This document shows positions 10,267 to 29,835 of a DNA stretch of 58,897 bases, one piece after another. The position numbers and the translations under genes are program-made. The notes beneath the pieces are model-generated. The model had not been told where the DNA came from, ran no database searches, and was given only the letters and a program-made list of their open reading frames with translations. Within the stretch, counting starts at the first letter, position 1. Every line of letters starts with the position of its first letter. Source of the DNA: a virus (taxonomy: Duplodnaviria; Caudoviricetes); IMG/VR virus record IMGVR_UViG_3300014962_000007, positions 1-58,897 of that record. One strand, written 5' to 3'.

Positions 10267-13152
10267 ATGGACACAAAAACATTTCTGGAATCGGTGCTGG
10301 GAGACGAGGGTACGTACTGCGTATGGGCGAATCGGATTTCCGACAAGTCCAAGGTGCAGAAGTTCTACCCTACGATTGACGCACTTATCCATGCGGCTGG
10401 CAGTTTGGATGCCGAGGGCTACGACGCATACTTTGCATTGGGTACGTTTGATGAAGCAGGCTCACGTGAAGCCAGCAACGTAAAACAACTCAGGGCGTTT
10501 TTCCTCGACCTCGACTGCGGCCCGTCAAAAGACTACGCATCGCAGAGTGACGCACTTCGCGCACTCCAGCAGTTCTGCAAGACATTGAGCTTGCCCCGCC
10601 CCACCCTGATCAACTCAGGCCGTGGGATTCACGTGTACTGGAGGCTCATAGCCCCGGCGTCACGCGACACATGGCAACCCGTTGCCGACAAACTCAAGGC
10701 TCTGTGCAAGAAGCACGGGCTGAACGCGGACCCGGTGGTGACAGCCGATGCCGCACGCGTGCTCCGAGTACCGGGCACGCACAACCACAAAGACACGCCC
10801 CCGACTGAGGTGAAGCTGGTCGGTGAGCCCGGCGCACCAGTAGAGTATTCGGTGTTCGCGGACCTGATCAACAGTCACGAAATCGACGAAGGCATCTTTG
10901 CCGCCGCCAGAAAGTACGTGCCCCGCGAAGCCGATGCGCTGATGCAGGCACTGTCGGGTAGCTTTGTCAGCCGCTTCAAGACCATCATGATGCGCACGGC
11001 CAAGGGCACCGGGTGCGCTCAACTCGGCGAGGCCGTGGCCAATCAGGCAGACATGTCTGAACCTTTGTGGCGTGCCACACTGTCTGTTGCGAAGTTCTGT
11101 GTTGATGGTGGCAAGGCCATCCACAAAGTTTCTGACAAGCACCCCGACTACACACACGCGGCCACCGAAGCCAAAGCCGACCTGATCAAAGGCCCATACC
11201 TGTGCGAACGGTTCAACGAGTACAAGGCCGGGGTGTGCACCGAGTGCATGCACTGGGGCAAGATCAAGTCTCCCATCTCGCTGGGCCGCGAGGTTGAGGA
11301 AGCCACCGAAGAAGACAACATCGTTGTCCAGACGCCGATCGGCGTGCCCGAGGCAACCCCCATCACGTACGTCATCCCCAAGTACCCCACACCGTTTTTC
11401 CGTGGCAAGTCAGGGGGCGTGTTCAAGCGTGGCAAGCAGGTGTTCAACAAGGAAGGCGAACTCGACGAAGAAGCGTCCAAGGACAAGCTGGTGTACTTCA
11501 ACGACATGTACGTTGTGCGTCGCCTCAAGGACCCCGAGCTTGGCGAATCGCTGGTCATGCGCCTGCACCTACCCAAGGATGGCGTGCGTGAGTTCACCCT
11601 GCCGCTGACTGCCGTGGGGTCTAAGGACGAGTTCCGCAAGCATGTAGCAATGCACGGCGTAGCGGTGCTCAACGTGAACGATTTAATGGAGTACACAATG
11701 CAATGGGTTAACGAGTTGCAGTTGAAGACCGAAGCCGAAGAAGCCCGACGGCAGTTCGGGTGGTCTGACGATCACGAGTCCTTCGCAGTTGGCGGGGCGC
11801 TGGTGTTCAAGGACCGGGTTGAAATCAACGCGCCGTCCGGCGCAACCATGGGGCTGTTCCCATACTTCCAACCCAAGGGCACCCTTGAAGGGTGGAAAGA
11901 GACCATGAAGTTCTACGAGCGCGAGGGTATGGAGCCGCACCAGTTCATGGTGGGCCTGTCTTTCGGTGCTGTGCTCATGGAATTCCAGCCGATCAACGCC
12001 GCCGCGTTCCACATGTACTCGAAGGAATCTGGCCTTGGCAAGACCACGGGCATGCTGGCCGGTGCGTCTATCTGGGGTGACCCAGACCTGTTGATGATGC
12101 AGGAGCGTGACACGATCAACTCCAAGATGAACCGTGCTGAGGTGTACAAGAACATCGTAGGGTACATGGACGAGTTGACCAACACCAAGCCGCAAGACCT
12201 GTCGGACTGGGCCTACCAACTCCCGAGTGGTCTCCAGCGCAACCGCATGGGGCCGAAGGGTAACGTCGAGCGCGTGCGCGGCAAGCCATGGAAGACACTG
12301 TTTGGCACCACCGGCAATACGTCCATGATTGAACGCATCTCGCTGTACAAGGCACTGCCCAAGGCTGAGGCCCAGCGCATCTTGGAGTACCGGGTTGAGC
12401 GCGTCAAGTTCGCCACCAAGGCCGAGACTGATCAGTTTGCCGCCGCAGTCAAGGAAAACTACGGGCACGCCGGTATCGTGTTCGTGCAGTACCTGATGAA
12501 CAATCTGGAAGCGTCCAAGCAGTTGGCCCTTGCGGTCCAGCAGAAAATCGACGTTGCCTCCGGCCTCACGGCAGAAAACCGCTTTTGGTCTGCGCTGGTA
12601 TCCCGTGACATCGCAGGGCTGATGCTGGCCAAGAAAGCCGGGCTGATCAACTGGAAGATCGAACCGATCGTGAAGTGGGCACTGGGTGCCATGGAGATTG
12701 CACAGGGCAACGTGAAGGAGATGGACTCCGATGTTGAATCCACCCTGACCGACTACTTGGCCGAGCACTACACCGGCATCCTGCGTATCAAGTCAACGGA
12801 TGATGCACGCAAGCCCCCGACGATCGACACGATCATTCAGCCGGTCGAGGCTATGCGTAGCAGTCATCTGGTGGCACGATACGAGTACGACATCAAGCGG
12901 CTGTATCTGCTCACCAAGCCCCTCAAAGAGTGGTGCGGTAAACAGCAGATCAACTACGCCGGGTTCGTCGAAGGGCTGAAGACCAGCCGCACCAAGGCCA
13001 CCAAGGTCAAGATGCGGTTGTCCCGAGGCACGTACATGAACCTGCCACCCGCCGACGTTATTGCCCTCGACTGCACGGAATTCATGAACGATGAAACTGA
13101 GCAAGCAATGGCTACAACCGCCGCGTTGCGCCAGCAACAGGCTGAAGATTGA
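10267..13152 (+). CDS. primase-helicase (AEP/RepB-like primase + DUF927-like region + P-loop ATPase)
   Basis: FFLDLDCG, NSGRGIHVYW, RVLRVPGTHN primase motifs; Cys cluster CERF...CTECMH; KESGLGKTT Walker A, YMDE Walker B. Confidence 0.85.
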   Translation: MDTKTFLESVLGDEGTYCVWANRISDKSKVQKFYPTIDALIHAAGSLDAEGYDAYFALGTFDEAGSREASNVKQLRAFFLDLDCGPSKDYASQSDALRALQQFCKTLSLPRPTLINSGRGIHVYWRLIAPASRDTWQPVADKLKALCKKHGLNADPVVTADAARVLRVPGTHNHKDTPPTEVKLVGEPGAPVEYSVFADLINSHEIDEGIFAAARKYVPREADALMQALSGSFVSRFKTIMMRTAKGTGCAQLGEAVANQADMSEPLWRATLSVAKFCVDGGKAIHKVSDKHPDYTHAATEAKADLIKGPYLCERFNEYKAGVCTECMHWGKIKSPISLGREVEEATEEDNIVVQTPIGVPEATPITYVIPKYPTPFFRGKSGGVFKRGKQVFNKEGELDEEASKDKLVYFNDMYVVRRLKDPELGESLVMRLHLPKDGVREFTLPLTAVGSKDEFRKHVAMHGVAVLNVNDLMEYTMQWVNELQLKTEAEEARRQFGWSDDHESFAVGGALVFKDRVEINAPSGATMGLFPYFQPKGTLEGWKETMKFYEREGMEPHQFMVGLSFGAVLMEFQPINAAAFHMYSKESGLGKTTGMLAGASIWGDPDLLMMQERDTINSKMNRAEVYKNIVGYMDELTNTKPQDLSDWAYQLPSGLQRNRMGPKGNVERVRGKPWKTLFGTTGNTSMIERISLYKALPKAEAQRILEYRVERVKFATKAETDQFAAAVKENYGHAGIVFVQYLMNNLEASKQLALAVQQKIDVASGLTAENRFWSALVSRDIAGLMLAKKAGLINWKIEPIVKWALGAMEIAQGNVKEMDSDVESTLTDYLAEHYTGILRIKSTDDARKPPTIDTIIQPVEAMRSSHLVARYEYDIKRLYLLTKPLKEWCGKQQINYAGFVEGLKTSRTKATKVKMRLSRGTYMNLPPADVIALDCTEFMNDETEQAMATTAALRQQQAED

Positions 13153-13407: not shown

Positions 13408-13436
13408 GCCCCCGGCTCAACACCGGGGGCTTTTTT
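13408..13436 (+). terminator. rho-independent terminator at the convergence of replication and late arms
   Basis: GCCCCCGG-CTCAACA-CCGGGGGC-TTTTTT abutting the stop codon of the opposing 2178-aa gene. Confidence 0.85.
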
Positions 13437-16400
13437 CATTCCCCGTCGTCGTCGAAGATCGACACGTCTCGGTCGAACTCGGCGGCGTTGGCCAGCAGTT
13501 CATTGCGCATGAGCTTGTTGAACGTGACCCCGTGGTACATGGTTGCCGTCGTGCGCATGTGCTGTGCCAGCGAGTTCTTGATCACCGTCGGGGTAACCAG
13601 ACCCGGATGCTTCTGGCCCAGCTTGACAAGTTCTTCCATGTAGTCGCTGGCGGCGTCGCCGTCCCCTGCACGCAGGGCCACGTAGTATTTTCGCAGGAGG
13701 TTGGTACGCTTCTCCAGCGTACGGCGCTCGACGTTCTTCTCGACCGCGTTTTCTTCCAACTGACGCATGTACTCAGCGGGTGCAAACCCGAGTGCCTGCG
13801 CAAGGGAATGGCCGAGGCCAACTTCGCCCACGATGGGGTCACCGCGCATGGTGTTTGTACCTTCCGCGAGGAACCGGCCACCCTTGATCACGTTACCGAA
13901 GCCAGCCGGGGCTACCTGCTCCAGACCACGAAGCGTTTCGCCGTCGAAGATCAGCTTGACGCCACGGATGATGCGGTCGCCCACACCGTACACCGGGCCA
14001 CCGAACAGTTGCAGGAAGCTCAGCACCGCGTTGTCTTGGTCGCGGTATCCGGTGTCGTGCAGCAGCAGGTCAGTCAGGCCGATACGGTTGGCGACCGCGG
14101 TACCCGTCAGGTAGTTCAACGCACCGTTGAACCGACCCTCGCCCATGTACTTACGGGCAGCGGTCTCGAAGTCATCATCGTCGTCACCCTTCAGGAACAG
14201 GTTGTACAGTGCGGACACGAGGCCGAACATCGGGATACCCTGCGCCCCAGCCAGCAGTGCAGTCGAGGCGTAGATACCAGCAATCTGGCGCTTGGCAGCG
14301 GCGCGGACCTGTGGGTCTTCCCCGATCAGCGCGTCATGCGTTGTTTTGAACAGCATGTAGTACATCGACACGCCGTAGCGCTTGTACATGAACACCATCT
14401 TGCCGATCGAGTTCTTCGCCAGCAGGGGCGCACTGTTAGCCGAAGCGCCACCGTTGAGCAGTTCGGCAGAGCGAATCGCTTCTTCAGCAGCGGCGGTGCG
14501 GTCTTGTGCAGTGAGTTCTTTCCCGCCGTTGGCTTTGCGCATGCGCTCAAGTTCGAGCCGGTAGGCTGCAACCATCGAGACCTGCCGGTTCATGCGTTCA
14601 CCGTGGTGGAACACAAACCCGGACCATGCGTTGATCTTGGCCAAGGGGCCGTCGGCTGCACCGGATTCCAGCACGTCGCTGGTCATGGAGCGGCTGAGCA
14701 AGCCGTACTGGCTGGACAACTCGGCCAACTCACGTAGATCGAGAATGGCCTTTTCGTTGTCGGTCAGGTCTTTCTTCTTGGCCAGTGCGTCGAAGTCGTA
14801 GTTGTCGATGGAATATCCAGCCGTCAACTCCACAGGGTCACCACCGCCCACAGTCTTGGCTTTGCGCTTGCGGCCAGAGCCGAAGAACAGTCGTGTGGCT
14901 GCGCCAATGGCCTTGTTCGCGTCACCGTATCCGTACTTACCACCAAGGTAAGGCATGACCACCATGGGCAACTGAGTCGTGTTGACAAGTGCAGACGAGA
15001 CGTTGAAGCCGAGGGTCCAGCCGAACGCCGTGGACGTGGTCAGCTTGGCGAACGGTGAGATGTCCGGGGAGACCATCGACTTGATGTGGCGGTCCATGGT
15101 GTCGAACAGCATACGTGCTTCTTCCGTGCGGTCCTTGGTGTCCACGTACTCCTGCATCTCGTCGCGCAGCTTGTACATCTTGGCCCCGTATTCGAGGTTG
15201 GCCAACTGGTGCGCCATGCTGATGGACTTGGAGTAGAAGACGTCAGCCGCATCGGTCATTGCACCGAGCGTACCCAGACGCGAACGGAACGACTGCGCAA
15301 ACGACGATTCGGGCAGCGTGTCGAGAAACACCCGCATGATTTCGTCGGTCACGGTCGGGTCAACCTTGTTGGCGTCCAGCACCTTGATGATGCTGTTGAC
15401 AAACGACGTGGGCGGGGCATCCCGGTATGTACGCTTGCCGGTCGGCGAAGACTTTTGCACCGACTTCACATCCACGTTCGGGTCGGCCTTGAGTTCCCGG
15501 ATTGCCCGTGCCTGCTCCACCGAGTTTTGGAACGCTACCTTGTAGTATTCCATCTGGCCGTCAGCGTTCTTGGCATTGAATGTTACCCAGTGATCGCCTT
15601 GGCGCATCAGCGGGAAGTACGGCTCAATCTTGCCCTTCACCGCGAGGCGCTGGTAGATTTCCTTGCGCAGCTTCTCGGCTTCCTTGGGGTCCTTCACCGA
15701 CGAGTCGATGCGGCTGAACAGCAGGTTGATCAGTTGTTCGTGGGATTCGGCGTAGGCATCGCGCATCTGTTTGTAGATGGCTTGACCCTCTGGGCCGAGT
15801 GCTTTCCACTTGGCCTGCAAGCTGTCCCAAACTGCCTGCTTGTCCTTGTCGCTCTTGGTGCTCTTGCCCTTGTAGCTGTCGCGTGCCTTGCTCGGGTCAA
15901 CTTCTTCCAGCGTGGACTGCATCACCAGATCGTTGAGTGCGGATTCCTTCTCGGGGTTGCCCTTGGTCCACTTGCTGATGTTGCTGTACGTTGCATCCAC
16001 CGCACGGCGGCGCTCGTCGATCGCACCGCCCCACTGCTTCTCAAGGGTGTCGAGCTTCTTGGCCATGGGGATGACCTTGGCAGCGACGTCCGTGAGTGCG
16101 TTGAGGGGCAGGCTGCGCAAGATTGTGGTCTTCGTGAGGTTGGGGATTTTCTCCCGCAGCACTTCGTAGATACCACCGACGACGCGGTTGTCCATGACCG
16201 GCATGCTCAGGACCTGAGCGTCCATGGCCTTGAACACATCTTTGGATGCGCCCAGCAGGGAGGCCTCGTACATGGACCCCACAGGTGCGTTGTTCGGCGA
16301 CACGATCTGCATGATCGCCACGTCAGCCGAGTCCAGCGCCGAGTCGATACCCTTGGTGGGCATGCCCATGACATTACGCAGGAAGTTGCCCACGGCACGG

Positions 16401-19400
16401 ATGAATCGGCGCAGTGCGCTGATGGGTTCGCCCTTGGGGTTGATTTGTGCCAGCGTTTGCTGGAACTCGGGGTTGCTGAAGACCTCGGACACAAACTCGT
16501 CGAGCGACTTGGCACCGTACGCCGAGCCCAGCGAATCCTTGACCGTGTTGAACAGGTCTGTCAGTTGTTTGGTGGCTGCGTGCCCCTTGTTGCCCAGCAC
16601 CTTCAGGACCGCCGCGTGCGTTGCTTCGTGCAACAGGGCGTGCGGGTTCAGACCGAACTTGGAGTCCAGCTTGATGGTGTTTGTGGTGGCATCGTACGAG
16701 CCAGCCAGCGACCGGCCCGACGGCGACTTGAGGTCATCGACAATCTGCACTTTGACGCCACCGATGGCCTTGGCCAGTGCACGGGCAATCTTGGCGCTAC
16801 GGCTGGTCATGTTCCCGGCGAACTCGTTGAGGGCCGCAGACACATCGCCAGCTTTGAGGGCCGCGACGACGCGGGGATGCAGCGGCAACGACACACGCAC
16901 CATGTCAGCAGTGAGTTCAGCGTCCTCGTCCATCTGGATTCGGGTCTCGCGGTCGAGCACCTGTTTGGCGTTAAACCAGCCCATGCCTCGGCGGGTCATG
17001 GACTCTTCCTTGATGAAGAAGCGTTCAAGTTGCTGGAGTATCTTGGCCTTCTGGGCGTCGTTCAGGGAGTTGTAGTACGCCCGTGCGTACTTACCCCCAG
17101 TGCCGGGGTAGAAGTCACCACTGCCTTCGCGGCCAAACTTGAGGTCAGGCATCTCACCACGTACCAGCGCGGCGGTGATGTCGTTGAGACCCTTGGCCAC
17201 GTCACGTTGTGGGAAAGTCGCCACGAAGATGTCATGGGCCAAGTCCTCAAGCGCACGCTCAGGGTTCTGTTCCTGCATGCTGCTGTATGCACCGAAGTCG
17301 CCTTTGGGCGCGGCCTTCTTGGTCTCGGCCTTGGGCTTTGCGGCCTCATCGGCTTTGCGCTGGGCTTCCTCTGCACGTTGCAGCATCTCCCAAGCCTCGT
17401 TGGTCTTGGTCTTGGTCTTGGGTTCGGATTTGGACTCAATGATGTCTGTTTCAAGGAGGTTGTCCAGCATCTTTTCATCGCTGACAACACCTTGTTTTCC
17501 TAGATTCACATCTGCCAACCGCGCCCCGTCTACCCTAATGCTTACCGCGTCAATCTTCGTAGGGTCTTCAGCCGTGCGGGTAATTGTTACCGTCGCGGGT
17601 TTGCCGTCGTACGTGACACGATATGTGGTCTTGGTCTCCTTCAGTGCACCCGGCTCCACCTTCTCTCGTTTTCCAGCGTCACGTACAGGCTGTCCACGAT
17701 CTCCCAGTCCAGCGGACTCAGGCTTTTCAGTTGGCTTGGCACCAGCAGGTCGCTCAGCGGCTGCTGGTTTTTGTACGACTGGTTCACGATCCGCAGTGCG
17801 AGTTCCAGTTGCTCCACCGTCAGTTCCTGACTTCTCACCACGTCCTCGACTTGGCTCACTTGGCTTCTCCTTCGCAGGCTTCTTGGCACCCTTTGTCTCC
17901 GTCGGGAACAGTTCTTGTTGCTTGGCCATGCCGCCAAACGCCTGCATAGCCATACGTTCGATGGCCTGCTTGGTGGCAGGCTTGACGTTTGCGTTGGTGC
18001 GCACGCGCCCAAACACTTCGCGCATGACGGGCCAGTTGGCCTTGTCGGCCATGTCGAGGTTGAGCAGTTGCTTGTAGAAGCCCGACTGCTTGGGCAACCC
18101 CGTTTTGTCCAGCACTTCGGCAGTCAGCGTGGTGACGAACGGCTCGGTGGACGTGTGTGAGCGTGGGGCTTCGCCGGAGCGCCCGGTGAACGGGGCTTCC
18201 TGTCCAGCCAACTCTTCCTCAGAGAACGCCTCGGGCGCTTTGCCCTTGGGCTTACCCATACCGGGAAAGCCCATCTGTTCGGGCTCGCGCTGCACCTTCT
18301 TCTCAGGTACTTGGGCTTCCAACTCCTCGGTCTGCCCTTTGGGTTGCTCGACAGTGGGCTCCTCAGGTGCCACCGGCTCTTCCATCAAGCGCAGGTCGTA
18401 CGCTCGCTTGATTAGGTTCTGTTCCCGCTCGGTCAGGTTCGGATTGGTGAAGCCCTCGCGCTTGAGGGTTTGCACGAACGCTTTGGGGATGTTCCCCACG
18501 TCCGATTCCACGATAGGAAGTAACAACTCAAGGCGCTTGTCCTGAGTCGTCCTCTCTTCCTTGGCCTTAATCCTTCCGTCGAGTTCGGCAAGATCGGATT
18601 CAAACTTCAGGCGCTCTTTCTCGGCCTTGGCTTTCTCGGCCTTACGCGCATCTTCTGCGTACATCTCGTTGATGAGATCATCTACGGTCATGCCGCCTTG
18701 AAGGTCAAGCCCAAGTTGCTCTTCAACACTCGGTACTTCGTCGGCAGCAAGCTCTTCCGCTGCCGCTTCTTTGGGGGTTACACGCCCACGCCCCGGAACT
18801 TCCACGGTGCCATCTGCACGCTCTACGCCGGGTAGGTCGAGTTGGCCTTTTTCAGGCTCTTGCGCGAAGGTCTCGGCGAGCGCCGCTTCCTTGCCGCGAC
18901 GTGCAAGCGTACGGTCAAACTCGGACAGCCCAGCCAATGGGTCAGAGGTGCGCAGGTCTTCCTTGCGCTGGGCCGCTGCACCTTCCTTGGACTTGATGTA
19001 CTGGTCGTACTCGGCCTTGGACGTGATGACCGACCCATCGGGTAGGGCCACGGGGGTGAACGGTTCGGGGGTGTACCCCAAAAGTTGTTGCTCGGCAGTC
19101 TTGGCCTCGGTGGTAGGTGGAGCTTCAGGTTTCTCGCCCGGCTTCGCTGCACGGGCTTTGCGGCCCAGCGTCAGATCAAGGATCAAGCTGGCCATCGCGC
19201 CAACACCGGCACCATACGCGCCTTCTTCACCCGTACCGGCCAGCACCGGCTGGTTGGGGTCGTATACGCCTTTGGCAATGAGATTCTGTGCCAGCTTCTG
19301 CGCCGCTTCGGTTGCGCCTTCGACACCCCCACGAGCCAATGCCGTAGTGATGATGCTCTTCATCGGCCCGATTTCTGGAGCGAGGATGTCCAGCAGGCCA

Positions 19401-19972
19401 GTAGGTGCACCCAGCAAGGTGGCCATGCGGCGCTCTGCGCCTGTGACCCCTTTGGCTTCAGCGGATTCTCGCGCTTCACCTGCACCGGCAGCAATACCCA
19501 GACCTGCACCTGCGGCACGGCCAGCCAACCCCAAGGGGCCAAGGCCGAAGAACGGTAGGGTTGACCCCAGACCTTCGCCGAGGCGGCGACCCACTGAATC
19601 TTCGTACCCGGCAGCGGCCTCGAACGGCTTCTTGGCTACGCCAGCGATCTCTTTGATCTTTTCCCGTGCGGCCTTTTCGGTATCGTCTGGCAGCATGGCT
19701 GCGATACCAGTTCCTGCGGTTTCGAGCAGGCCAACAGCGCCGGGCACCACGCCCTTGAATGCTTCCTTGACGTTGCCACCGAAGGTGGTCTCAGGCTTTT
19801 CCTTCTGGGCACGTAGCTCATCGAGGCGCTGCTGGATGCGCGTGTCTTCGGCGTCCATCGACGGGGCGGACGTCTGCAAGCGCTTTGCAATCTGTGCCAA
19901 CCTACGCGCCGCGTCTACATCTCCCGCTGCATCTGCGTTACGCAGGGCGGTCAGCACATTTTGCAACTCCAT
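13436..19972 (-). CDS. large internal virion/ejection (polyvalent-type) protein with zincin-like metallopeptidase motif
   Basis: 2178 aa, last gene of the late operon; GSYD...LLHEATHA...DEFVSE (HExxH at 16616-16630); Gly/Ala hydrophobic N-region. Confidence 0.8.
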   Translation of the reverse strand: MELQNVLTALRNADAAGDVDAARRLAQIAKRLQTSAPSMDAEDTRIQQRLDELRAQKEKPETTFGGNVKEAFKGVVPGAVGLLETAGTGIAAMLPDDTEKAAREKIKEIAGVAKKPFEAAAGYEDSVGRRLGEGLGSTLPFFGLGPLGLAGRAAGAGLGIAAGAGEARESAEAKGVTGAERRMATLLGAPTGLLDILAPEIGPMKSIITTALARGGVEGATEAAQKLAQNLIAKGVYDPNQPVLAGTGEEGAYGAGVGAMASLILDLTLGRKARAAKPGEKPEAPPTTEAKTAEQQLLGYTPEPFTPVALPDGSVITSKAEYDQYIKSKEGAAAQRKEDLRTSDPLAGLSEFDRTLARRGKEAALAETFAQEPEKGQLDLPGVERADGTVEVPGRGRVTPKEAAAEELAADEVPSVEEQLGLDLQGGMTVDDLINEMYAEDARKAEKAKAEKERLKFESDLAELDGRIKAKEERTTQDKRLELLLPIVESDVGNIPKAFVQTLKREGFTNPNLTEREQNLIKRAYDLRLMEEPVAPEEPTVEQPKGQTEELEAQVPEKKVQREPEQMGFPGMGKPKGKAPEAFSEEELAGQEAPFTGRSGEAPRSHTSTEPFVTTLTAEVLDKTGLPKQSGFYKQLLNLDMADKANWPVMREVFGRVRTNANVKPATKQAIERMAMQAFGGMAKQQELFPTETKGAKKPAKEKPSEPSRGRGEKSGTDGGATGTRTADREPVVQKPAAAERPAGAKPTEKPESAGLGDRGQPVRDAGKREKVEPGALKETKTTYRVTYDGKPATVTITRTAEDPTKIDAVSIRVDGARLADVNLGKQGVVSDEKMLDNLLETDIIESKSEPKTKTKTNEAWEMLQRAEEAQRKADEAAKPKAETKKAAPKGDFGAYSSMQEQNPERALEDLAHDIFVATFPQRDVAKGLNDITAALVRGEMPDLKFGREGSGDFYPGTGGKYARAYYNSLNDAQKAKILQQLERFFIKEESMTRRGMGWFNAKQVLDRETRIQMDEDAELTADMVRVSLPLHPRVVAALKAGDVSAALNEFAGNMTSRSAKIARALAKAIGGVKVQIVDDLKSPSGRSLAGSYDATTNTIKLDSKFGLNPHALLHEATHAAVLKVLGNKGHAATKQLTDLFNTVKDSLGSAYGAKSLDEFVSEVFSNPEFQQTLAQINPKGEPISALRRFIRAVGNFLRNVMGMPTKGIDSALDSADVAIMQIVSPNNAPVGSMYEASLLGASKDVFKAMDAQVLSMPVMDNRVVGGIYEVLREKIPNLTKTTILRSLPLNALTDVAAKVIPMAKKLDTLEKQWGGAIDERRRAVDATYSNISKWTKGNPEKESALNDLVMQSTLEEVDPSKARDSYKGKSTKSDKDKQAVWDSLQAKWKALGPEGQAIYKQMRDAYAESHEQLINLLFSRIDSSVKDPKEAEKLRKEIYQRLAVKGKIEPYFPLMRQGDHWVTFNAKNADGQMEYYKVAFQNSVEQARAIRELKADPNVDVKSVQKSSPTGKRTYRDAPPTSFVNSIIKVLDANKVDPTVTDEIMRVFLDTLPESSFAQSFRSRLGTLGAMTDAADVFYSKSISMAHQLANLEYGAKMYKLRDEMQEYVDTKDRTEEARMLFDTMDRHIKSMVSPDISPFAKLTTSTAFGWTLGFNVSSALVNTTQLPMVVMPYLGGKYGYGDANKAIGAATRLFFGSGRKRKAKTVGGGDPVELTAGYSIDNYDFDALAKKKDLTDNEKAILDLRELAELSSQYGLLSRSMTSDVLESGAADGPLAKINAWSGFVFHHGERMNRQVSMVAAYRLELERMRKANGGKELTAQDRTAAAEEAIRSAELLNGGASANSAPLLAKNSIGKMVFMYKRYGVSMYYMLFKTTHDALIGEDPQVRAAAKRQIAGIYASTALLAGAQGIPMFGLVSALYNLFLKGDDDDDFETAARKYMGEGRFNGALNYLTGTAVANRIGLTDLLLHDTGYRDQDNAVLSFLQLFGGPVYGVGDRIIRGVKLIFDGETLRGLEQVAPAGFGNVIKGGRFLAEGTNTMRGDPIVGEVGLGHSLAQALGFAPAEYMRQLEENAVEKNVERRTLEKRTNLLRKYYVALRAGDGDAASDYMEELVKLGQKHPGLVTPTVIKNSLAQHMRTTATMYHGVTFNKLMRNELLANAAEFDRDVSIFDDDGE
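17641..17859 (-). CDS. nested overprinted gene, 72 aa, +1 frame inside the 2178-aa gene
   Basis: SD AAGGAG (17872-17867) 7 nt before GTG; MSQVEDVVRSQELTVEQLELALRIVNQSYKNQQPLSDLLVPSQLKSLSPLDWEIVDSLYVTLENERRWSRVH; GC-rich third codon positions move to this frame here. Confidence 0.7.
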   Translation of the reverse strand: MSQVEDVVRSQELTVEQLELALRIVNQSYKNQQPLSDLLVPSQLKSLSPLDWEIVDSLYVTLENERRWSRVH

Positions 19973-19973
19973 G

Positions 19974-21782
19974 TCACTTACCTTTCGTGTACTGGTCGAT
20001 CAGCGCCTGTTCTTCCTTTGAGACCGTCGCCGACGTAACACCCAGCTTAGAACGGTTCGATGCAATGACGGGTTCCATCGACTTTTGAATGGCACGCTTG
20101 GCTTGCTCGGCGCGAAGCTGCGCAGTTTCGAGTTCGGTCTTTTCTGCTGGTGACAGTTTATCCGCACCCTTCATCATCAGCATACCGATGCGGGGGTCTT
20201 TTTGCAGGGCTTCGTCGATCTCGCGAATCTGCGTGGCCACCAGACGTTCGGCGTTGGTCAGCGCGGCAGAAGCACGGCTCAGGTCAAGACCTTCACGCTG
20301 GATGCGGTTGGTCTCAGCACTGATCTGCGCCTTCATCATCTCGACACGGCGGTTGAGTTCGTGGTCACGTGCCTGCACGTCTGTACCGTACAGTGCTTGC
20401 GCCGAGCGTTGTGCATCGGAGCGGCCCATGCGGGTTTGCTCCAGTGCCTTGAGGCCACCCTCAATGCTGGGCTTGATGCCTTCACGCTCCAAACCGACCA
20501 GCCCCTCGCGGGATTTCTGCATCGACTCAAAGTCCTTGAGCTTGGCCTGACGCTGTTCTTCGTCGTAACCCATGGCGCTCTTGGCACCCCCAGCAAACTC
20601 ACCGTAGCGACGACCACCTGCACCCAGCAGATATTGTTTGAGACCTTCACGCCGCTGTCTTTCGGGGTCGTAGGTCTCATCAAACATCTTTTGACGCTGG
20701 GCGATACCTTGATCGAACACAGCACGCTGTTCGGGGGTCAGGGCGTAGGCTTGACGAATCTCATCCTGTATACGCTTGCGCTCGACCTCGGAGTCGCGGT
20801 TGTAGTCGGCCTGCAAGGATGCTTCCAAGCCAGCCGGTTTTGCAGCGGCAGGAAGACCCGCGATACCGAGGGCTGGAGTCGCAGGGGCAGCGGAGGCAGC
20901 AGGTGACATACCCGGAGCAGCGGCAGCAGGTGACATACCCGGAGCAGCGGCAGCGGGGGCAGCAACGGTTTCAGCAGGAGGGGTCTGCCCCAACATGCGT
21001 GGATCGTTGGCCATCGTCGGGCGCAGATTTGCGCCTTCTGCACGTACTGCCTGCATGTTGCGGTCACGCTCTTGGTTAAGCGCCGCTGAGCGGTCGGAAC
21101 CTCCAAGGGCGATGTTCATCCGATCAATTATGCTGCCTTGCGGGATTGTTCGGCGTTGCAAAGCCACGCCTGCACGCTGAAGCATAGCGTTTTCATCTGG
21201 AGTACGGTCGTGCGGGTCTTTGGCAAGGATGCGCTGCACTTCTTTGTCGGTAGAGCCCCCCTCGTCGAACGCCACAATACCGCCAGACGCCATAGCTTTC
21301 GGCTGCGCCGCCATAGCTGCGCCGGGAGCACGCGCAATGCCTCCCGCCATGGCCTGTTGCAGATTCTGTTGCTGTTGTTCTGCTTGGTGCTGCGCGGTTT
21401 CGCCGCGCTGCTGAGCCAACTCAGCTTTGGTCAGATCGTGCACTTCCTTCTCGCGTTGTTGCGCGATGGTCTGGGGCTCCATACCCTGAGCGGCCTGCTG
21501 CTGACCCATGGCCAACTGCATCTGGCGTGCAGCGGCTTCCTTCTCAGACTTGATCTTTTGGAGGGCCAGAAGATCGAGCAGGTCTTGCGACATCTGATAC
21601 CGCTGTTGCAAGGGTGCAGGGTTGCCACGGTATGCGGCAACGCGATCTTCGACCGAACCGAGCCCGGCCATAGGACTGGCCTTGTTGGGTGACGGCATCG
21701 GCTGTTGTGGTTGTTGCGGCTGTTGTGGTGCACGGCCTTGGGACATGAGGCCAGCGAGTCCTTGTGCGTTCGGCATTTGCAT
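19974..21782 (-). CDS. putative internal virion/ejection protein
   Basis: 602 aa, Gln/Ala-rich, helical; MASGG and FDEGG motifs; position among ejection genes. Confidence 0.7.
   Translation of the reverse strand: MQMPNAQGLAGLMSQGRAPQQPQQPQQPMPSPNKASPMAGLGSVEDRVAAYRGNPAPLQQRYQMSQDLLDLLALQKIKSEKEAAARQMQLAMGQQQAAQGMEPQTIAQQREKEVHDLTKAELAQQRGETAQHQAEQQQQNLQQAMAGGIARAPGAAMAAQPKAMASGGIVAFDEGGSTDKEVQRILAKDPHDRTPDENAMLQRAGVALQRRTIPQGSIIDRMNIALGGSDRSAALNQERDRNMQAVRAEGANLRPTMANDPRMLGQTPPAETVAAPAAAAPGMSPAAAAPGMSPAASAAPATPALGIAGLPAAAKPAGLEASLQADYNRDSEVERKRIQDEIRQAYALTPEQRAVFDQGIAQRQKMFDETYDPERQRREGLKQYLLGAGGRRYGEFAGGAKSAMGYDEEQRQAKLKDFESMQKSREGLVGLEREGIKPSIEGGLKALEQTRMGRSDAQRSAQALYGTDVQARDHELNRRVEMMKAQISAETNRIQREGLDLSRASAALTNAERLVATQIREIDEALQKDPRIGMLMMKGADKLSPAEKTELETAQLRAEQAKRAIQKSMEPVIASNRSKLGVTSATVSKEEQALIDQYTKGK
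20896..20954. repeat. 27-bp tandem duplication (AAAAPGMSP x2)
   Basis: GCAGCAGGTGACATACCCGGAGCAGCG repeated in tandem, in frame. Confidence 0.85.
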
Positions 21783-21790
21783 GGGTTACC

Positions 21791-22774
21791 TCAAGGCGTA
21801 GTGGTAGAAGGCGACCAGATTTTGGTGCCATTGATGTAGTAGTTCCCCTGCGGGTCGATCTGCGTCCCGTTCGAGTAATATTTCCATCCCGGCTGTGCGT
21901 TGGCTTGTTGCGACGTAGTTTCGACAGGTTTTGTAGTGTCCTCAGTAGAGAACAGGCGGTCGTACAAGTCCATGATCCCACCGGATTGACTCAAAATCTG
22001 AGAGAGCGCACTCGGCTGCGAGTACGAGTAGGTCTGCGCGGCCAGCGGCAGACCCTGAAGGAGTGACTGCATGTACTGCACTTGCTTGTACGGGTAGTCA
22101 CGTTCTTCTTTGAATTGGCCAAGATCAGCGGTGATGCCTTCTTGCTCGATGGCACGCTCCTGTGCGCCGAGGTCGGCCTGCTTTTGAAGTGCGGCCAGAC
22201 CAAAGTTTTGTGCAGCGGTTGTAGCCTGTAGCCCCTGATCTTGTTCACGATTGAACTGAGCCATGGCCTGATCGTAAGCCGTTTTGTACCCTTGCCCGGT
22301 GATGTTGGACAGGTTCGTCAGTAGGTTACGCTGATTCTCCGACTCCATCAGGGCACCGCGACCACCACCAAATGCACCGGCCTTGGTCAGTGCAGTGCGA
22401 TTTTGGAGGTTTTGGATTTGCGCCTGACGCTTGGCCTCTTCAATCTGCGGATCGAGGGCTGCGGTCAAGTAGGGGTTCATCAGGCGTTGCGCATCCCCAG
22501 CAGTAAACTGCGTGGGGGTAAACGCCTTCATCTGGTCGGTCGGGATGGTCAGCCCGGCGATGCCTTGAAACGCCGTCTGCTGTGTGCCCGAGGCCCCCGC
22601 CGTGAGGGGACCGGTATATGCTTGGTACGGTTGGTTTGCAAGCGCTTGGCCACGGCCAAGCATCTCGGTTACATACGGCCCCGCCCAGTTGGACAGGGAG
22701 GATTCGGTACCAGTCTGCTGCCCTACGCCGGTAGTTGCAGAGGCTGCGGTGGTGGTTGGAGTCGGATCAGCCAT
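21791..22774 (-). CDS. putative DNA-transfer/ejection protein
   Basis: 327 aa Gln/Ala/Gly-rich; MNPY..., AGAFGGGRGAL motif typical of podovirus pilot/ejection proteins. Confidence 0.7.
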   Translation of the reverse strand: MADPTPTTTAASATTGVGQQTGTESSLSNWAGPYVTEMLGRGQALANQPYQAYTGPLTAGASGTQQTAFQGIAGLTIPTDQMKAFTPTQFTAGDAQRLMNPYLTAALDPQIEEAKRQAQIQNLQNRTALTKAGAFGGGRGALMESENQRNLLTNLSNITGQGYKTAYDQAMAQFNREQDQGLQATTAAQNFGLAALQKQADLGAQERAIEQEGITADLGQFKEERDYPYKQVQYMQSLLQGLPLAAQTYSYSQPSALSQILSQSGGIMDLYDRLFSTEDTTKPVETTSQQANAQPGWKYYSNGTQIDPQGNYYINGTKIWSPSTTTP

Positions 22775-22782
22775 GTGCTACC

Positions 22783-23682
22783 TCACGAGGGGAGAAATTT
22801 GTTAGGGTTGACTTGTTTACCCTGCTTGGTCGTACCAGTACGAGCCTTACGAATCCTGTCCATCATCTCGTACAGGCGCTGGGCACCAGCTTCAGAGTTG
22901 CCATTGCCAAGGTGCCCGACGACATCAGCGGGGATGACAAACTCACCGTGACTCAACTTGGCCTCCTGACTACCGTCAATTCGTGCTGGAATTTTATCAG
23001 CCATGCCATCGGTTGCGCCACCCAAATATCGACCTTGCGCCAGTGCAGTGATACCCCCATGTGCGTATTTCGGCACGGGGACTTTTTCAATGACTTTGGA
23101 TGCGGCGGTGCCATCACGTGCGACATCCGATTCGGCCCCCCGCTCGGCAGCGGCTCGGGTAGGGGGGGGGGCTTGGCGTGCGGGGGTGTCTCGGTTCAAC
23201 GTAGCCAGCCCGGCAGCTTGCTCTTTGGCGGCAGCACGCGCCGCAGTAGCCGGTTCACCCGGCGCAGCGTAGGTCATGTCACTGAAATACCGCTGGCCCC
23301 CGCTACCGGGGCGACGGTTGGGGTCGTAGTGGCTACCAGCCACACCTTCTCGCACGGCCTCGTACGTAGGAATCTTGCCTTGGTAGCCGGTCTTGGGTTG
23401 TGCCTGCTGGCTTTGGTATGCGCCATACAACCCACCCGCCGCTGCCGCAACCTTCCTCCAGTCGGTCTGCCCGTTGGTCGTGAACTGCCCTTTGAGGAAA
23501 TTCAACGCCCCAGAGCCTGCCGACTTCAGGAAGTTGGAGATTGTGGAAATCGTGCCGGGGTCTTCGTACCCGATCTGTTGCAGAATGTCGGCGTTCGAGG
23601 GAGAGTCGGCATTGCTCCAGTCCGAGGTCGTCGAGGGGTCGATACCAATCGAGTCCCAGAACCAAGAATCATCTTCACCCAT
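22783..23682 (-). CDS. virion protein with C-terminal YAHGG...DKIPA...LSHGEFVIPADVV domain
   Basis: ATG 23682 after GAGGGG; C-terminal domain resembles the F/YAxGG...GEFV module of tape-measure proteins. Confidence 0.75.
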   Translation of the reverse strand: MGEDDSWFWDSIGIDPSTTSDWSNADSPSNADILQQIGYEDPGTISTISNFLKSAGSGALNFLKGQFTTNGQTDWRKVAAAAGGLYGAYQSQQAQPKTGYQGKIPTYEAVREGVAGSHYDPNRRPGSGGQRYFSDMTYAAPGEPATAARAAAKEQAAGLATLNRDTPARQAPPPTRAAAERGAESDVARDGTAASKVIEKVPVPKYAHGGITALAQGRYLGGATDGMADKIPARIDGSQEAKLSHGEFVIPADVVGHLGNGNSEAGAQRLYEMMDRIRKARTGTTKQGKQVNPNKFLPS

Positions 23683-23684
23683 TT

Positions 23685-26600
23685 TCAACCCCTCAAAATT
23701 TTCAACAGTTCTTCGTTTGCATCGAGGATGTCATCCCCCACTACGCCACCCTTGGCATACGCCCCATACGGAGATGCAAACATCTTTTCCTGCGACGGGT
23801 TAGCAAAAATGCTGTTCCAGTCGTAAATGTACCCAATCTTGGTCGGATCGGCAGCTTTTACCGTCACCTGCTGGCCGCTGACATCCGGTGCCTGTGTCAG
23901 CATCCCCATCATAGAGTTGAGGTTGCCCACACGCTGCGTCTTGAGCGCGGCAGCGGCTTGTGCCTGCCGCGTCTTTTCTGCGTCTGCGGCAGCGGCAGCT
24001 TGTGCGTCAGCAATAGCCTTTTGAGTGGCCGCTTGGTTGGTAGCCATCTGCCCGAACACATCTTTGAACCCAGCAGCAGACTCAGATCGCGCAAGTTGGA
24101 TCGCAGTATTGAGGTCAAACCCCTGCTGCTGCAACTGCGTGGCCAAGTCTTTTTGCCCCTGTGTAAGGGTGTCATACTTGGTTTGCACGTCCTGAGTAAG
24201 CCCAGAAATCTGGGTTTGTGTTTGCTGCTGCGCTTGCTGGATGGCCGTGTTGAGGTCGACGCCCTGCTGTTGCAGTTGTGCGGCCAGTGCTTTTTGTTCG
24301 GCAGTCAGTGCGTCGTACTTGGCCTGCACATCAGCGGAAATACCCGTGATCTGCGCTTTCAGGTTTGCCTCAGTCGTACCGATCTTGGTGAGAAGGTCAG
24401 TTTTGGTCGTGCCGAGGTTGTTGGCGACGGTCGTGACTGCTAAAGACAACGCATCGTCTCGCGCCAACCCAGCCTTCTCGTATGCAGCCATCTGGTCGGC
24501 GATGGCTTTCTGTACGTCGGTGACTTGTTGCTGCACCGCACCGATTTGCGTAGCGAACTGCGCCTTCAGATTTGCCTCAGTCGTGCCCATCTGCGCAAGC
24601 AGATCAGCTTTCGTGGTTCCGAGGTTACCGGCAACTTTGTCGATAGCGGCTTGGAGTGCAGCATCGCCTTGGAGCCCCGCAGCTTGCGCATCGGCGATGG
24701 CTTTCGTCAAGGACGCTTGCACGTTGCTGATCTGAGTCTGCACCCCTGCGATCTGTGTCGCAAACTGCGACTTCAGCGCAGCTTCCGTGGTGCCGATCTT
24801 GGCCAGCAAGTTTGCGGCAGTAGTGCCCTGATCCGCAGCTACTTTGTCGATCGCAGCCTTGAGCGCTGCGTCACCCGCGAGTCCTGAGGCCTTTGCGTCA
24901 GCAATCGCAGCCGTGAGCTTGGTATCCAGCCCAGAGATTTGCGTAGCGAACTGCGCCTTCAGATTTGCCTCAGTCGTGCCAAGGCGGGTAAGCAGTGAGG
25001 CAGTATCTGTCTTTTGGGTAGCTGCGACATCGCTGATCGCCTTTTGCAAGGCGGCGTCCCGAGTCATCCCGGCTTGCTCATTCTGGGCAACCTGTGTAAG
25101 GATGTCCGTCTTGGTCTTATCCAAGCTGGATTGCAGGGTCTTAATTTCTGTACCCAGTGCAGTCTGGACACCAGCAATCTTCGATGTCAGTGTGGCGGTA
25201 TCCGTCTTCTGTGAAGCGGCAACTGTCTCAATCGCTTTTTGCAGGGCGGCATCTCGCGTCATGCCCGACTGCTCGTTCTTGGCAACCTCGGCCAAGATGT
25301 CTTTTTCGGTCTGCGCCAGATCGGTTTGCAGCGTACCTACTTGCCCGGACAACTTTGATACATCACCGCCCAGCGCAGTAATCTGGCTGTTCAGGTCTTT
25401 CTTGATGGTCTCCAGCACGGCAGGGTCTACACCGGACTGTTTGGCCAGCGTATCAAGCTGCTCCATGATGGAGTTGTAGCGTGCGGGGTCGAGGTTGGCT
25501 TTGGCCTTACCCGCAAGTTCTGATTCAGAATACTGCCCAAGCAGTTTTTGCACATCCGCTTGCGTAGGCCTTTTAAGCCCCAGTGCGTCGTACGCCGCCT
25601 TGGCCTCACCCTCGTCTACCATTCGAGGGTCCACATACTCCCTAATTGCCTTGGCCTGTTCAGATTCATTGACCTGCCCGACAAACTGTTTGACTTCGGC
25701 ATCAGTAGACTTATAGCCAAGATCGGTGAGGTACTTGCGTGCCTCAGCCTCAGTGACCTGACGGGGGTTGACGTACTCACCAATCGCTGTAGCTTGGGCG
25801 GCTTCTGCTCTGGCCCCTACAAACTGATTGATTTCGGCATCGGTAGGGACGTACCCACGTTGCGCGAAGAACGACTTCGCCTCTTCAAATGTCGTGGCTG
25901 TAGGATCGAGTTGCGAGGCCAACTTGGCAGACAGCGCAGCTTCATCGCCCTGCTGTACATACTGCTGGGCTTGTGCTTCAGTCAACGTGACGCCTTCTTT
26001 TTTGGCAACCTCAATGACTTCTTTTGCGTCCAGTTTGTTCTGGTCCACAAACTTGTTGATGTTGGTGAACGTCGCGGTCGACGCTGGTTGGCCAACGAAC
26101 CCTTTAACGGTGTTGTCGTTCGGTACGAAGTTACTCGCACGAAAGATTTCGGCGACAGCAGATTCGGTGAGGACGTCCGTTGTGCGTGATACAGTTTGCG
26201 TACCATTCAACAGATCGCCCAATTTGACGTTCATGTCACCCAGATTGACCACAGAACGCAGATCAGCAACCGGCGTCAGCTTGGCCAGATCAGCGTTGGC
26301 GTTCGGATCGGCGAAGTTGGCAATACTGTTCGCAGTGAGGAGTTCTGCCAACGTGACATTCTGTCCAGTAGCATCTTTGGCCACGACCGAGTTGTAGGTC
26401 AGTGGGGTTACGCCGATTGAAGACTCGTCGCGCAACACCATAGACGCGTTGCGCACGTTGTTGAGCAGCGTGGCGGCGCTGGTTGAACCACCCACCGTAA
26501 CCGCGACACTGACAATAGTGTCACCAACGGCCCTTGCGTAATCTGCAAAGGTGGCGTTCTGCGCCAGACCGAACGAGGACACCTTGTCAAAGGTAAGTTG

Positions 26601-29339: not shown

Positions 29340-29835
29340 TGGCACCACCTTCCAATGTCATCTGTAAGACCACGCGCCCCTGTGCGGTCTTGGTTGTCTT
29401 CATCTCGTCTCCATCAGACTTGATTTTTTGGAACGCCTGACGCAGTATCCGAGTAATTGCCGGGCTACGGTAAATGGCAACGATTTCAGTAACTCCGCTG
29501 CTGACCAACCGTGTAAGCCCTTCAGCTACGTTGTCCACCATGTTTTGCATAGTATCGGCGTTCATCGCCCACACCATTGCTTTATTACTGTTTTCTCCCG
29601 AACCACGCTTGTACAAAAAGAAAGTATTCCCAATGATTGCCCCCTCGGCATTCATCTTTGAGATGGCCGCAGCAGTAGCTATCATCCAGATTTTGAAGTC
29701 TTTGGTTGGCCCGTTGCCGGGGTCGTTGGAGTGGTACGTGTGCAGAATCTGCCCGTAGTCCAACTGTTCTTTGCGGCTGTCAACAAGTTTCATGGGCGGT
29801 GCCGGTTTGTGGGGGTTGGTAGAGTTTACCGCCAA
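29332..29835 (-). CDS. hypothetical protein, possible GNAT-like fold (T7 gp13-like position)
   Basis: 167 aa alpha/beta pattern, between tail genes and internal proteins; start uncertain (TTG 29835 or ATG 29793). Confidence 0.55.
   Translation of the reverse strand: MAVNSTNPHKPAPPMKLVDSRKEQLDYGQILHTYHSNDPGNGPTKDFKIWMIATAAAISKMNAEGAIIGNTFFLYKRGSGENSNKAMVWAMNADTMQNMVDNVAEGLTRLVSSGVTEIVAIYRSPAITRILRQAFQKIKSDGDEMKTTKTAQGRVVLQMTLEGGANV

Follow-up and report, generated by a model that had tools for sequence, protein, structure and literature searches.

In the lambda-like spanin genes, a short gene, Rz1, lies wholly inside a longer dsDNA-phage gene, Rz, on the same strand. Rz1 occupies the +1 frame of Rz and has its own ribosome-binding site, its product, which carries a signal sequence and a lipobox Cys, is secreted as a lipoprotein, and the two products work together. 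For example, rz (18174-18743) and rz1 (18391-18693) are annotated as nested genes in Erwinia phage PEp14 (locus L064 here). Same-strand overprinted genes, each with its own start, are also found in the Microviridae, such as B in A and E in D of phiX174; these are small ssDNA genomes, whose overprinted proteins are often disordered or membrane-active. The tail assembly chaperones of lambda (G/GT) and P2 (E/E+E') are small acidic helical proteins, for which a second reading frame is used and whose target is a very long protein that leaves the virion. To our knowledge, genes nested in longer same-strand genes are rarely reported by gene callers and annotation pipelines, and consequently few conserved nested cases are known in tailed phages. 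In the hepadnaviruses, the polymerase spacer, which is a disordered and tolerant linker of a large multidomain protein, lies over preS/S, where the other frame encodes a functional protein; in the passages that Pavesi (2021, PMC8227390) devotes to this overlap, its proposed origin is a short gene between two genes that later fused. Our literature search on overprinted or embedded genes in bacteriophage virion proteins returned the Microviridae only, and that on PLxRFG proteins, supplementary files aside, returned no description of a nested gene. The searches on phage polyvalent proteins together with overlapping genes gave nothing related, and those on same-strand overlapping or nested genes and on Bcep22/gp75 gave nothing relevant.

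Could a gene of this kind be nested in a giant virion gene of a tailed phage? Here, we analyse the window, that is, the whole stretch of 58,897 nt of tailed-phage DNA (IMG/VR record IMGVR_UViG_3300014962_000007), in which the gene of a giant polyvalent virion protein, called the host gene below, very probably contains a genuine protein-coding gene nested in its +1 frame, with its own start and a small helical product (Table 1). The positions that the original prediction gave for the Shine-Dalgarno (SD) sequence, the GTG and the end of the 72-codon ORF are all confirmed by the sequence. AAGGAG occurs just twice in the 6537-nt host gene, and the SD of the nested gene is the sole AGGAG or GGAGG in it that is followed by a start codon 4-10 nt later. 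Judged from the sequences, the arrangement would be of the Rz1-in-Rz type: an embedded ORF with its own conserved SD and start, under purifying selection and in dual coding with the enclosing frame, from which a product is presumably made. However, the enclosing gene encodes a giant virion protein rather than a lysis protein, and no sequence relation to Rz1 was found. Membership in the Rz1 / o-spanin family was considered and rejected, for the window's protein contains no Cys, its N-terminus is acidic and polar rather than signal-like, its family is acidic and helical, and neither Pfam nor PHROG gives a match. The other known systems differ as well. The tail assembly chaperones rely on a -1 frameshift extension, whereas here the gene is nested; in contrast to the Microviridae, the nested product is predicted to be folded and the host frame to be disordered; and hepadnaviruses are animal viruses with tiny genomes under strong size pressure, whereas this is a 59-kb phage with an overlap of only ~220 nt.

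Table 1. Positions of the nested gene, its start signal and the surrounding parts of the host gene in the window.
Feature	Position	Strand	Basis and details
Nested gene	17641..17859	-	GTG 17859-17857, 72 codons, TGA 17643-17641; +1 frame of host gene
Shine-Dalgarno sequence AAGGAG of nested gene	17867..17872	-	Read directly; 7 nt before GTG
Host gene, 2178-aa large polyvalent virion protein (PLxRFG / 'DarB-like' type)	13436..19972	-	Pfam LPD39 and phrog_10089
LPD39 domain, residues 1281-1439	15656..16132	-	Pfam PF18858, E 5.7e-23, 82 bits against a cut-off of 27
HExxH motif HEATH, residues 1115-1119, zincin-like domain	16616..16630	-	Motif read in sequence
Conserved helical host domain, residues ~615-681	17930..18130	-	AlphaFold2, pLDDT ~90; directly upstream of nested gene
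Disordered host-frame linker carrying nested gene, residues ~682-777	17642..17929	-	AlphaFold2, pLDDT <50
Small beta-domain insert of host protein, residues ~780-823	17504..17635	-	AlphaFold2; directly after nested stop

The host protein matches phrog_10089 ('DarB-like' PLxRFG proteins) at 1.1e-79, and tblastn aligns it at 26% identity with PLxRFG-annotated proteins of Klebsiella phages, the alignment to the cultured-phage PLxRFG proteins being confined to residues ~1270-2160. 'Ejection protein', as it had been called, is a plausible name for it. It also appears to possess a zincin-like HExxH domain with a downstream acidic ligand, since H1115, E1116, H1119 and that ligand, E1163, are invariant across 22 host proteins. 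The motif lies 338 residues (~1 kb) downstream of the nested-gene interval, and the interval itself falls in a stretch without secondary structure in the AlphaFold2 model (residues 682-777, model residues 98-193), so that both the distance to the HExxH domain and the disordered nature of the linker had been predicted correctly. The linker is the first part of a hypervariable, indel-rich K/P/E/A/T spacer, and the host-frame alignment is poor, with many indels, except over the overlap with the nested gene. As for the small beta-domain insert, it is present in the window and in locus L002 and missing from closer relatives, and metagenome contigs omit 17158-17637 and 17377-17639 in this area.

Homologues of the nested gene were found in 44 related contigs, always in the +1 frame and always inside a large ORF. 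The peptide HMM matched 29 of 60 sources, namely 28 loci and the window; all matches are on the host strand at offset +1, end at the last codon before the stop and are enclosed by ORFs of 1559-2580 aa. The same nesting at +1 was seen for a second subgroup of 57-aa proteins (15/15 loci) and for a third query (2/2 loci). The stop of the nested frame is conserved among the relatives, and AAGGAG, GGAG or GAGG precedes an ATG or GTG by 6-7 nt in most of their loci; ATG takes the place of GTG in many relatives, and the SD and start are kept even where the nested start has shifted by some codons (L002, L003). The SDs are weak at L009, L007 and L012/L015, and L080/L081 have no canonical SD with ATG or GTG near the conserved part. 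At L079, the last ~37 nested codons are replaced while the host frame is intact, and therefore the nested gene can be lost.

Recurrence inside large phage proteins, for which the original prediction had proposed a check, is seen in the homologous giant genes of the 44 contigs. In 50,697 phage records, blastn and tblastn found no match to the region or the peptide. The family HMM found no nested homologue in the cultured phages L060-L067, all eight of which have PLxRFG proteins (best E 1.5). No GTDB genome contigs carrying the host alignment were found, and context searches with the family members P0029, P0053, P0024 and P0018 returned no viral contigs. The family members that could be placed belong to uncultured, largely aquatic phages and are all inside giant virion genes, these being a small sample of 365 clusters. 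In 24 loci, the HMM of the upstream helical domain ends 8-35 codons before the nested start, and in 19 other nested-positive loci this domain is undetectable. Likewise, no HExxH domain was detected in the nested-positive loci L036, L038, L046 and L055, while L025/L031, L052 and L065 possess this domain but lack the nested gene. The idea of a strict co-occurrence of the nested gene with either domain was dropped, as there are exceptions in both directions.

The selection on the two frames was compared in 45 ungapped pairs from 10 sequences. Identity is higher in the nested frame than in the host frame in all 45 pairs; dN/dS is 0.12-0.79 in the nested frame and exceeds 1 in the host frame in 41 of the 44 computable pairs. 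In a 14-sequence codon alignment, the third position of the host frame is the most variable one in all 84 windows outside the nested gene (d3-d1 +0.15 to +0.37), whereas over the nested gene it is the least variable (d3 0.37, d1 0.48), and only here in the 6.5-kb gene. Across 33 loci, the variability at nested positions 1/2/3 is 0.51/0.33/0.55. Four metagenome runs display the same pattern among strain-level variants: of the differences listed (40 of 121), 4/5 of those within the nested gene fall on its own third codon positions, while upstream, where only the host frame is present, 17/22 fall on third positions of that frame. These comparisons strongly support the predicted selection on the nested frame, which is purifying. 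In addition, the host frame is open in 33/33 loci, against a geometric-mean chance of 0.014 per locus when random synonymous codons are drawn given the nested protein; both frames are therefore kept open, which indicates true dual coding over the linker predicted to be disordered. By these sequence measures, the amino-acid sequence over the overlap appears to be selected mainly in the nested frame.

The base composition was also considered. With 219-nt windows, the host-frame GC3 over the nested interval is 0.39-0.42 against a gene mean of 0.72, and nowhere else in the gene does it fall so low. Within the exact bounds of the overlap, GC3 is 0.32 in the host frame and 0.81 in the nested frame, compared with 0.74 in the rest of the host gene, and the predicted shift in GC3 is therefore real. 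The accompanying claim, that the nested frame has the G/C-ending codons typical of the genome, is true of the window and fails in general: in relatives with a gene GC3 of 0.25-0.45, the nested GC3 remains 0.54-0.77, and in just 18 of 33 loci is it nearer than the host-frame GC3 to that of the gene itself. The low host-frame GC3 chiefly reflects a helical protein rich in Leu, Glu, Gln and Lys, whose second codon positions are rich in A/T. Codon usage was dropped as a test of which frame is ancestral, since the nested GC3 does not follow the gene GC3 across relatives.

The nested product is predicted to be a three-helix protein, acidic and rich in Leu, Glu and Gln, with a length of about 57-84 aa, and the AlphaFold2 model of the window's member has a pLDDT of 80 and a pTM of 0.61. 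Within the family, identity goes down to 23%, with E19, A21, P41, L44, L47, W52 and E65 invariant, and the C-terminal residue is nearly always His. A profile search recovered 365 clusters (50% identity) at E<=1e-3 among 1.84 billion representatives; among the matches listed, nearly all are 48-111 aa long, with the alignment extending to the C-terminus, and gene callers in public data place the family start at the same Met. On the evidence of such searches, this appears to be a previously unnamed family of small proteins outside Pfam and PHROG, as the scan of the window's protein against both returned no family. Known folds and families give no functional hint. Foldseek against PDB and BFVD gave nothing at E<=0.001 with the nested model; the best Z of the VIA-align wide search was 5.3 (three-helix bundles: homeodomain, TetR N-terminal domain, FF, SANT), below the noise of that tool for helical models; the best score in the protein atlas search was 0.88, under the lead level of 0.9; and the best E in the PDB sequence profile search was 0.44. 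Phage_TAC_7 (PF10109) was examined as a candidate family and rejected: in a scan that covered the 25 members of A4 and left out the other 24 of A3, 0/25 reached the cut-off, the best member, P0031, scoring 23.3 bits against a gathering threshold of 25. It is also the 1 of 50 family members that touches the profile. The window's nested protein has no match to Phage_TAC_7 at E<=1, none turned up in the window's genome when all six frames were searched, and hhalign of A4 against A7 (P2 gpE-like proteins) gave a probability of 0.1%. Homology to the tail assembly chaperones is therefore unsupported, and they serve only as a functional analogy below.

Is the open frame a gene at all? The length of the nested ORF is by itself not significant. 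The host gene has 20 open stretches of at least 70 codons in the alternative frames of the sense strand (12 in the +1 frame and 8 in the +2 frame) and an antisense ORF of 805 codons, and the probability that the nested frame is open given the host protein is ~0.70 for the window. An open frame with such a composition could accordingly arise incidentally where a gene is rich in G+C and a linker is of low complexity, or the region could be an RNA or DNA element. It is conservation, codon-position patterns and start signals, not length, that set the nested ORF beyond chance: the amino-acid substitutions stay conservative even between the most divergent members, dN/dS is below 1 in the nested frame while above 1 in the host frame, stop, start and SD are conserved, and the codon-position variability is reversed nowhere else in the gene. 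Moreover, the relatives range over a locus G+C of 0.44-0.56 and a host-gene GC3 of 0.25-0.78. We regard a non-coding origin of these patterns as scarcely credible. A programmed +1 (or -2) frameshift, by which the giant protein would be cut short after ~704 residues and continue into the peptide, so that the isoform ends in a helical domain, is a little less remote and still very improbable. The +1 frame is open for 88 further codons upstream of the nested start in the window, and phage structural genes often yield frameshifted isoforms, e.g. E/E+E' of P2 by its annotation. However, the +1 translation upstream is unconserved and resembles out-of-frame sequence, and in the distant relatives L024/L034, L036, L038 and L046 the ATG is preceded at 1-4 codons by an in-frame stop, so that a shift site could not be accommodated. 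The conserved spacing of SD and start, and the common Met chosen by public gene callers, likewise speak against it.

In the preferred reading, that of a nested gene with its own start, ribosomes would start independently at the strong internal SD and GTG to make the small three-helix protein, while frame 0 of the same nucleotides encodes a linker of the giant protein that is predicted to be disordered and tolerates sequence change. Since the small gene sits on the mRNA of the giant gene, both proteins would be made at the same time and place. What the small protein does can be put forward only tentatively. Our best guess is that in the producing cell it would team up with the giant protein, acting either as a chaperone of assembly or packaging or as an antidote that would silence an activity of the giant protein until it is packaged; the original prediction had suggested a chaperone or inhibitor of the large protein. 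Complex prediction of the nested protein with host residues 1000-1260 or 585-705 returned 'no answer' (a score of 0.00, where the mark is 0.32), which speaks neither for nor against binding. Counting against a partner role, the nested gene occurs with differing flanking host domains, and the HExxH domain and the nested gene each occur without the other. It is similarly possible, and to be held with equal caution, that the small protein acts apart from the giant protein, as a host-takeover factor, an anti-defence factor or a regulator, and is merely housed in a permissive linker where overprinting costs little. In favour of this, the linker varies strongly and is predicted to be disordered, the nested gene persists next to host domains that differ between loci, and accessory factors directed at the host are common among overprinted viral proteins, according to the parts of Pavesi (2021, PMC8227390) that treat them. 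However, the gene is inside such a giant gene in 44/44 contigs and free-standing in none (a small sample of the 365 clusters), which is unexpected for an autonomous moron, and PADLOC gave no meaningful match (best E 0.0027, in 3/25 members).

A further step is suggested by the hepadnavirus case, by analogy with which an origin of the phage nested gene from a short gene between two fused genes is conceivable. The small gene would then be the older unit; the giant protein would have been built around it by fusion of two neighbours whose joint frame ran through the small gene out of register, creating the disordered linker, and the small protein would have been retained because it serves this giant injected protein as its own chaperone or antidote. 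We consider this whole scenario unlikely. If it is true, nesting would keep the pair together through the domain shuffling that is typical of polyvalent proteins.

The comparative support for this nested phage gene is unusually clean. With a nested protein predicted to be folded and a host frame that forms a disordered linker, the locus provides a tractable example of dual coding, and it may offer a concrete handle on how the producing cell treats giant polyvalent virion proteins. For annotation, the lesson is that the hypervariable linkers of giant polyvalent proteins are worth checking for embedded genes.

The 72-codon ORF put forward in the original prediction, together with its Shine-Dalgarno (SD) sequence, spacer and GTG start, was found exactly where it had been proposed, at offset +1 within the 2178-codon host ORF of the virus record (58,897 bases, completeness estimate 95%). 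This nested ORF is conserved, under selection and dual-coded, and it carries its own start signals. Note that its length is by itself uninformative, because the host gene contains 20 alternative-frame open stretches of at least 70 codons on the sense strand, and long antisense ORFs too. The antisense ORF listed in the table and several others of 300-400 codons, all opposite the host gene, are probably a by-product of the G+C-rich coding sequence.

Coordinates of the nested gene, its host gene and other features of the window
Feature	Position	Strand	Remarks
Shine-Dalgarno AAGGAG	17872-17867	minus	7-nt spacer, then GTG
Nested ORF	GTG 17859-17857 to TGA 17643-17641	minus	72 codons
Host gene	13436..19972	minus	2178 codons
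Second AAGGAG	17636-17641		overlaps final two bases of nested stop codon (TGAAGGAG)
Antisense ORF	15086-17503	plus	805 codons
Four ORFs upstream of host gene	19974-29348	minus	602, 327, 301 and 1887 aa; no PHROG match at E<=0.001
701-aa ORF	30533-32638		matches virion structural protein
ORF	10267-13152	plus	matches primase/helicase

The shift in GC3 that was expected from the codon endings is present. The host-frame GC3 falls to 0.39-0.42 over the interval (219-nt windows) against a gene mean of 0.72, which is the deepest dip in the gene, and over the exact overlap GC1/GC2/GC3 are 0.79/0.64/0.32 in the host frame and 0.65/0.31/0.81 in the nested frame. The view that G/C-ending nested codons are typical of the genome thus suits the window, but not as a general argument, since the nested GC3 is nearer to the gene GC3 than the host-frame value is in only 18 of 33 loci. 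In relatives with gene GC3 of 0.25-0.45 the nested GC3 is still 0.54-0.77, and the host-frame GC3 over the overlap is low everywhere (0.16-0.36). The latter goes back to A/T-rich second codon positions, the nested protein being rich in Leu, Glu, Gln and Lys, and the high nested GC3 may stem in part from avoidance of T ahead of AA, AG and GA codons, since such combinations would put stops into the host frame.

The proposed selection on the nested frame is borne out by comparison of relatives. For 10 sequences whose nested gene has 72 codons, amino-acid identity is higher in the nested than in the host frame in 45/45 ungapped pairs; the nested-frame dN/dS is 0.12-0.79 over these pairs, whereas for the same nucleotides the host-frame dN/dS exceeds 1 in 41 of the 44 computable pairs (range 0.90-2.26). 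Position variability was also scanned along the whole host gene, using 14 codon-aligned sequences and 89 windows of 60 gap-free columns. Each of the 84 windows clear of the nested gene has its highest variability at the third position (d3-d1 from +0.15 to +0.37), and the order is flipped at residues 703-778 (d1 0.48, d2 0.42, d3 0.37). When 33 loci are aligned by nested codons, positions 1/2/3 vary by 0.51/0.33/0.55, the usual order of a coding frame. Near-identical variants occur on contigs from four metagenome runs of four studies; among the differences listed, 4 of 5 inside the nested gene are at nested third (host first) positions, and 17 of 22 in the host-only stretch 17872-18360 are at host third positions, counts that form a small supporting sample, because they come from the 40 best-supported of 121 entries.

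The host frame is also maintained. With the nested protein fixed and synonymous codons redrawn from each locus's own usage, the simulated host frame is stop-free with a geometric-mean probability of 0.014, while it is open in 33/33 loci. Therefore, the giant protein is read through the overlap, although multiplying the per-locus probabilities would overstate the significance, since the lineages are not independent. The disordered host linker noted originally is recovered by AlphaFold2 for host residues 585-1000 (17-sequence alignment), where 682-777 are predicted unstructured (pLDDT <50), with a confidently modelled helical domain (~615-681) on one side and a small beta domain (~780-823) on the other. 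From ~706 to ~900 the aligned host-frame sequences are hypervariable and rich in indels, and the overlap is the sole alignable island.

Recurrence of the peptide inside other large phage proteins was likewise observed. Scans with the host protein recovered 5 IMG/VR and 53 metagenome loci, and none in GTDB genomes. An iterated HMM of the nested peptide matched 29 of 60 sources, that is, the window and 28 loci (27 related contigs, since L001 and L005 are one contig), every match being on the strand of the giant gene, at offset +1, wholly within an ORF of 1559-2580 aa, and extending to the final residue before a stop. Searching 1.84 billion representative proteins with a profile gave 365 clusters at E<=1e-3; nearly all of the 150 listed are 48-111 aa with the match reaching the C-terminus, and the few longer ones have N-terminal extensions resembling out-of-frame translation. 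Two long repetitive proteins, P0006 (1031 aa) and P0104 (762 aa), score through many short repeated matches and are probably spurious because of their tandem repeats and unrelated architecture. None of 36 close database matches checked is named or has a Pfam domain. A 57-aa member used as query found 15 IMG/VR loci, 15/15 nested at +1 (in host ORFs spanning 986-2430 aa, the shortest truncated at contig ends), and a further query found 2/2. In total, the same arrangement is present in 44 related contigs, for which genomic context was established, compared with 365 clusters in the family.

The distribution has limits. The nested gene is absent from eight cultured phages with PLxRFG proteins and from the full-length relatives L052, a divergent 3277-aa protein, and L025/L031. 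In the identical L025 (4338-11328) and L031, unrelated sequence takes the place of the host segment that corresponds to window residues ~528-1026, with the HExxH and C-terminal parts retained; residues ~690-750 there include a stretch with very G-rich first positions and low GC3. Compared with L070, L079 (9000-9250) has the last ~37 nested codons swapped for unrelated sequence, with the first ~20 codons, SD, flanks and host frame conserved, apparently a natural case in which the nested gene was lost and the giant gene kept. The upstream helical domain ends 8-35 codons ahead of the nested start in 24 loci and is undetectable in 19 other nested-positive loci. The HExxH domain is present in most nested-positive loci, and was not found in L036, L038, L046 and L055; L025/L031, L052 and L065 have this domain but lack the nested gene. 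At 2-10 nt below the nested stop, the match to related metagenome contigs is interrupted, with skips of window 17158-17637 and 17377-17639 and loose ends at 17631 and 17637. The beta-domain insert that follows (host residues ~780-823) occurs in the window and in L002, but L005 and L011, which are closer relatives, lack it. Therefore, the nested 3' end coincides with a recombination or indel boundary.

Most loci have AAGGAG or GGAG/GAGG at a distance of 6-7 nt from a downstream in-frame ATG/GTG, giving a predicted product of 57-84 aa, and the pairing is kept in L002 and L003/L004 although the start is shifted relative to the alignment. The host gene of the window (6537 nt) has two copies of AAGGAG, and only at the nested start does an AGGAG/GGAGG have a start codon 4-10 nt later; TAAGGAG-type sites are used by other window genes. 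The second AAGGAG has no start codon within the next 10 nt and is not kept in L002, L003 and L005. Conservation of SD and start, as anticipated, thus holds for most loci but not all: L009, L007 and L012/L015 have weak SDs, and L080 (8538-9144) and L081 (5464-6070) retain the peptide and stop but lack an SD paired with ATG/GTG close to the conserved part, the only candidate being a TTG with a weak GAG upstream. Database proteins of the latter type (e.g., P0103) have long extensions that appear out-of-frame. Alternatively, a frameshift could fuse the peptide to the giant protein, which is unlikely, since the +1-frame translation is not conserved ahead of the start and an in-frame stop lies 1-4 codons upstream of the ATG in L024/L034, L036, L038 and L046. 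The nested protein would instead arise from internal initiation of translation on the mRNA of the giant gene, presumably late in infection, which would imply co-expression with the giant protein.

By its sequence matches, the host gene encodes a large polyvalent protein, and the label 'ejection protein' draws on resemblance to the PLxRFG/polyvalent family. Residues 1281-1439 match Pfam LPD39 (82 bits), and phrog_10089 ('DarB-like antirestriction') matches the C-terminus. In tblastn, only residues ~1270-2160 match PLxRFG-type proteins of cultured phages (of Klebsiella, Sinorhizobium, Agrobacterium, Erwinia, Pseudomonas, Vibrio and Microcystis) at ~26% identity. The HExxH motif is at 1115-1119, and H1115, E1116, H1119 and E1163 are invariant across 22 relatives. 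Among 22 giant host proteins (2011-2580 aa; the window and L002-L077), 21 are cysteine-free, with one Cys in L030; such avoidance over >2000 residues suggests an export- or ejection-linked constraint.

The 25 aligned members of the nested family are 23-88% identical to the window copy, with E19, A21, P41, L44, L47, W52 and E65 invariant and L58, L62 and the C-terminal H72 nearly so. Over 50 members, median values are 63 aa for length, 5.1 for pI and -4 for charge, the composition includes Leu 20.6%, Glu 12.2% and Gln 9.8%, and the last residue is His (44/50) or Gln (6/50); this almost invariant His may be functionally important. The AlphaFold2 model (pLDDT 80, pTM 0.61) places helices at 15-31 and 49-71, with short helical turns linking them, and leaves the N-terminus disordered; fold and family searches recognised no known fold or family. 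We tentatively favour a role in which it serves the giant protein as a partner inside the producing cell, as a chaperone or packaging aid or as an antidote to one of its activities; an independent accessory function is about equally plausible.

Embedded phage genes are already known. For example, Rz1 in Rz, as annotated in PEp14, has the same arrangement, but the nested protein here is unrelated to spanins. Searches of the main texts of openly available papers turned up no gene nested in a PLxRFG or polyvalent protein. In concept, the nearest counterpart is the hepadnavirus polymerase spacer over S (PMC8227390). Here the two frames swap the folded and disordered roles that are usually reported, and the value of the case lies in its clean comparative evidence and in a large family that has had no name.
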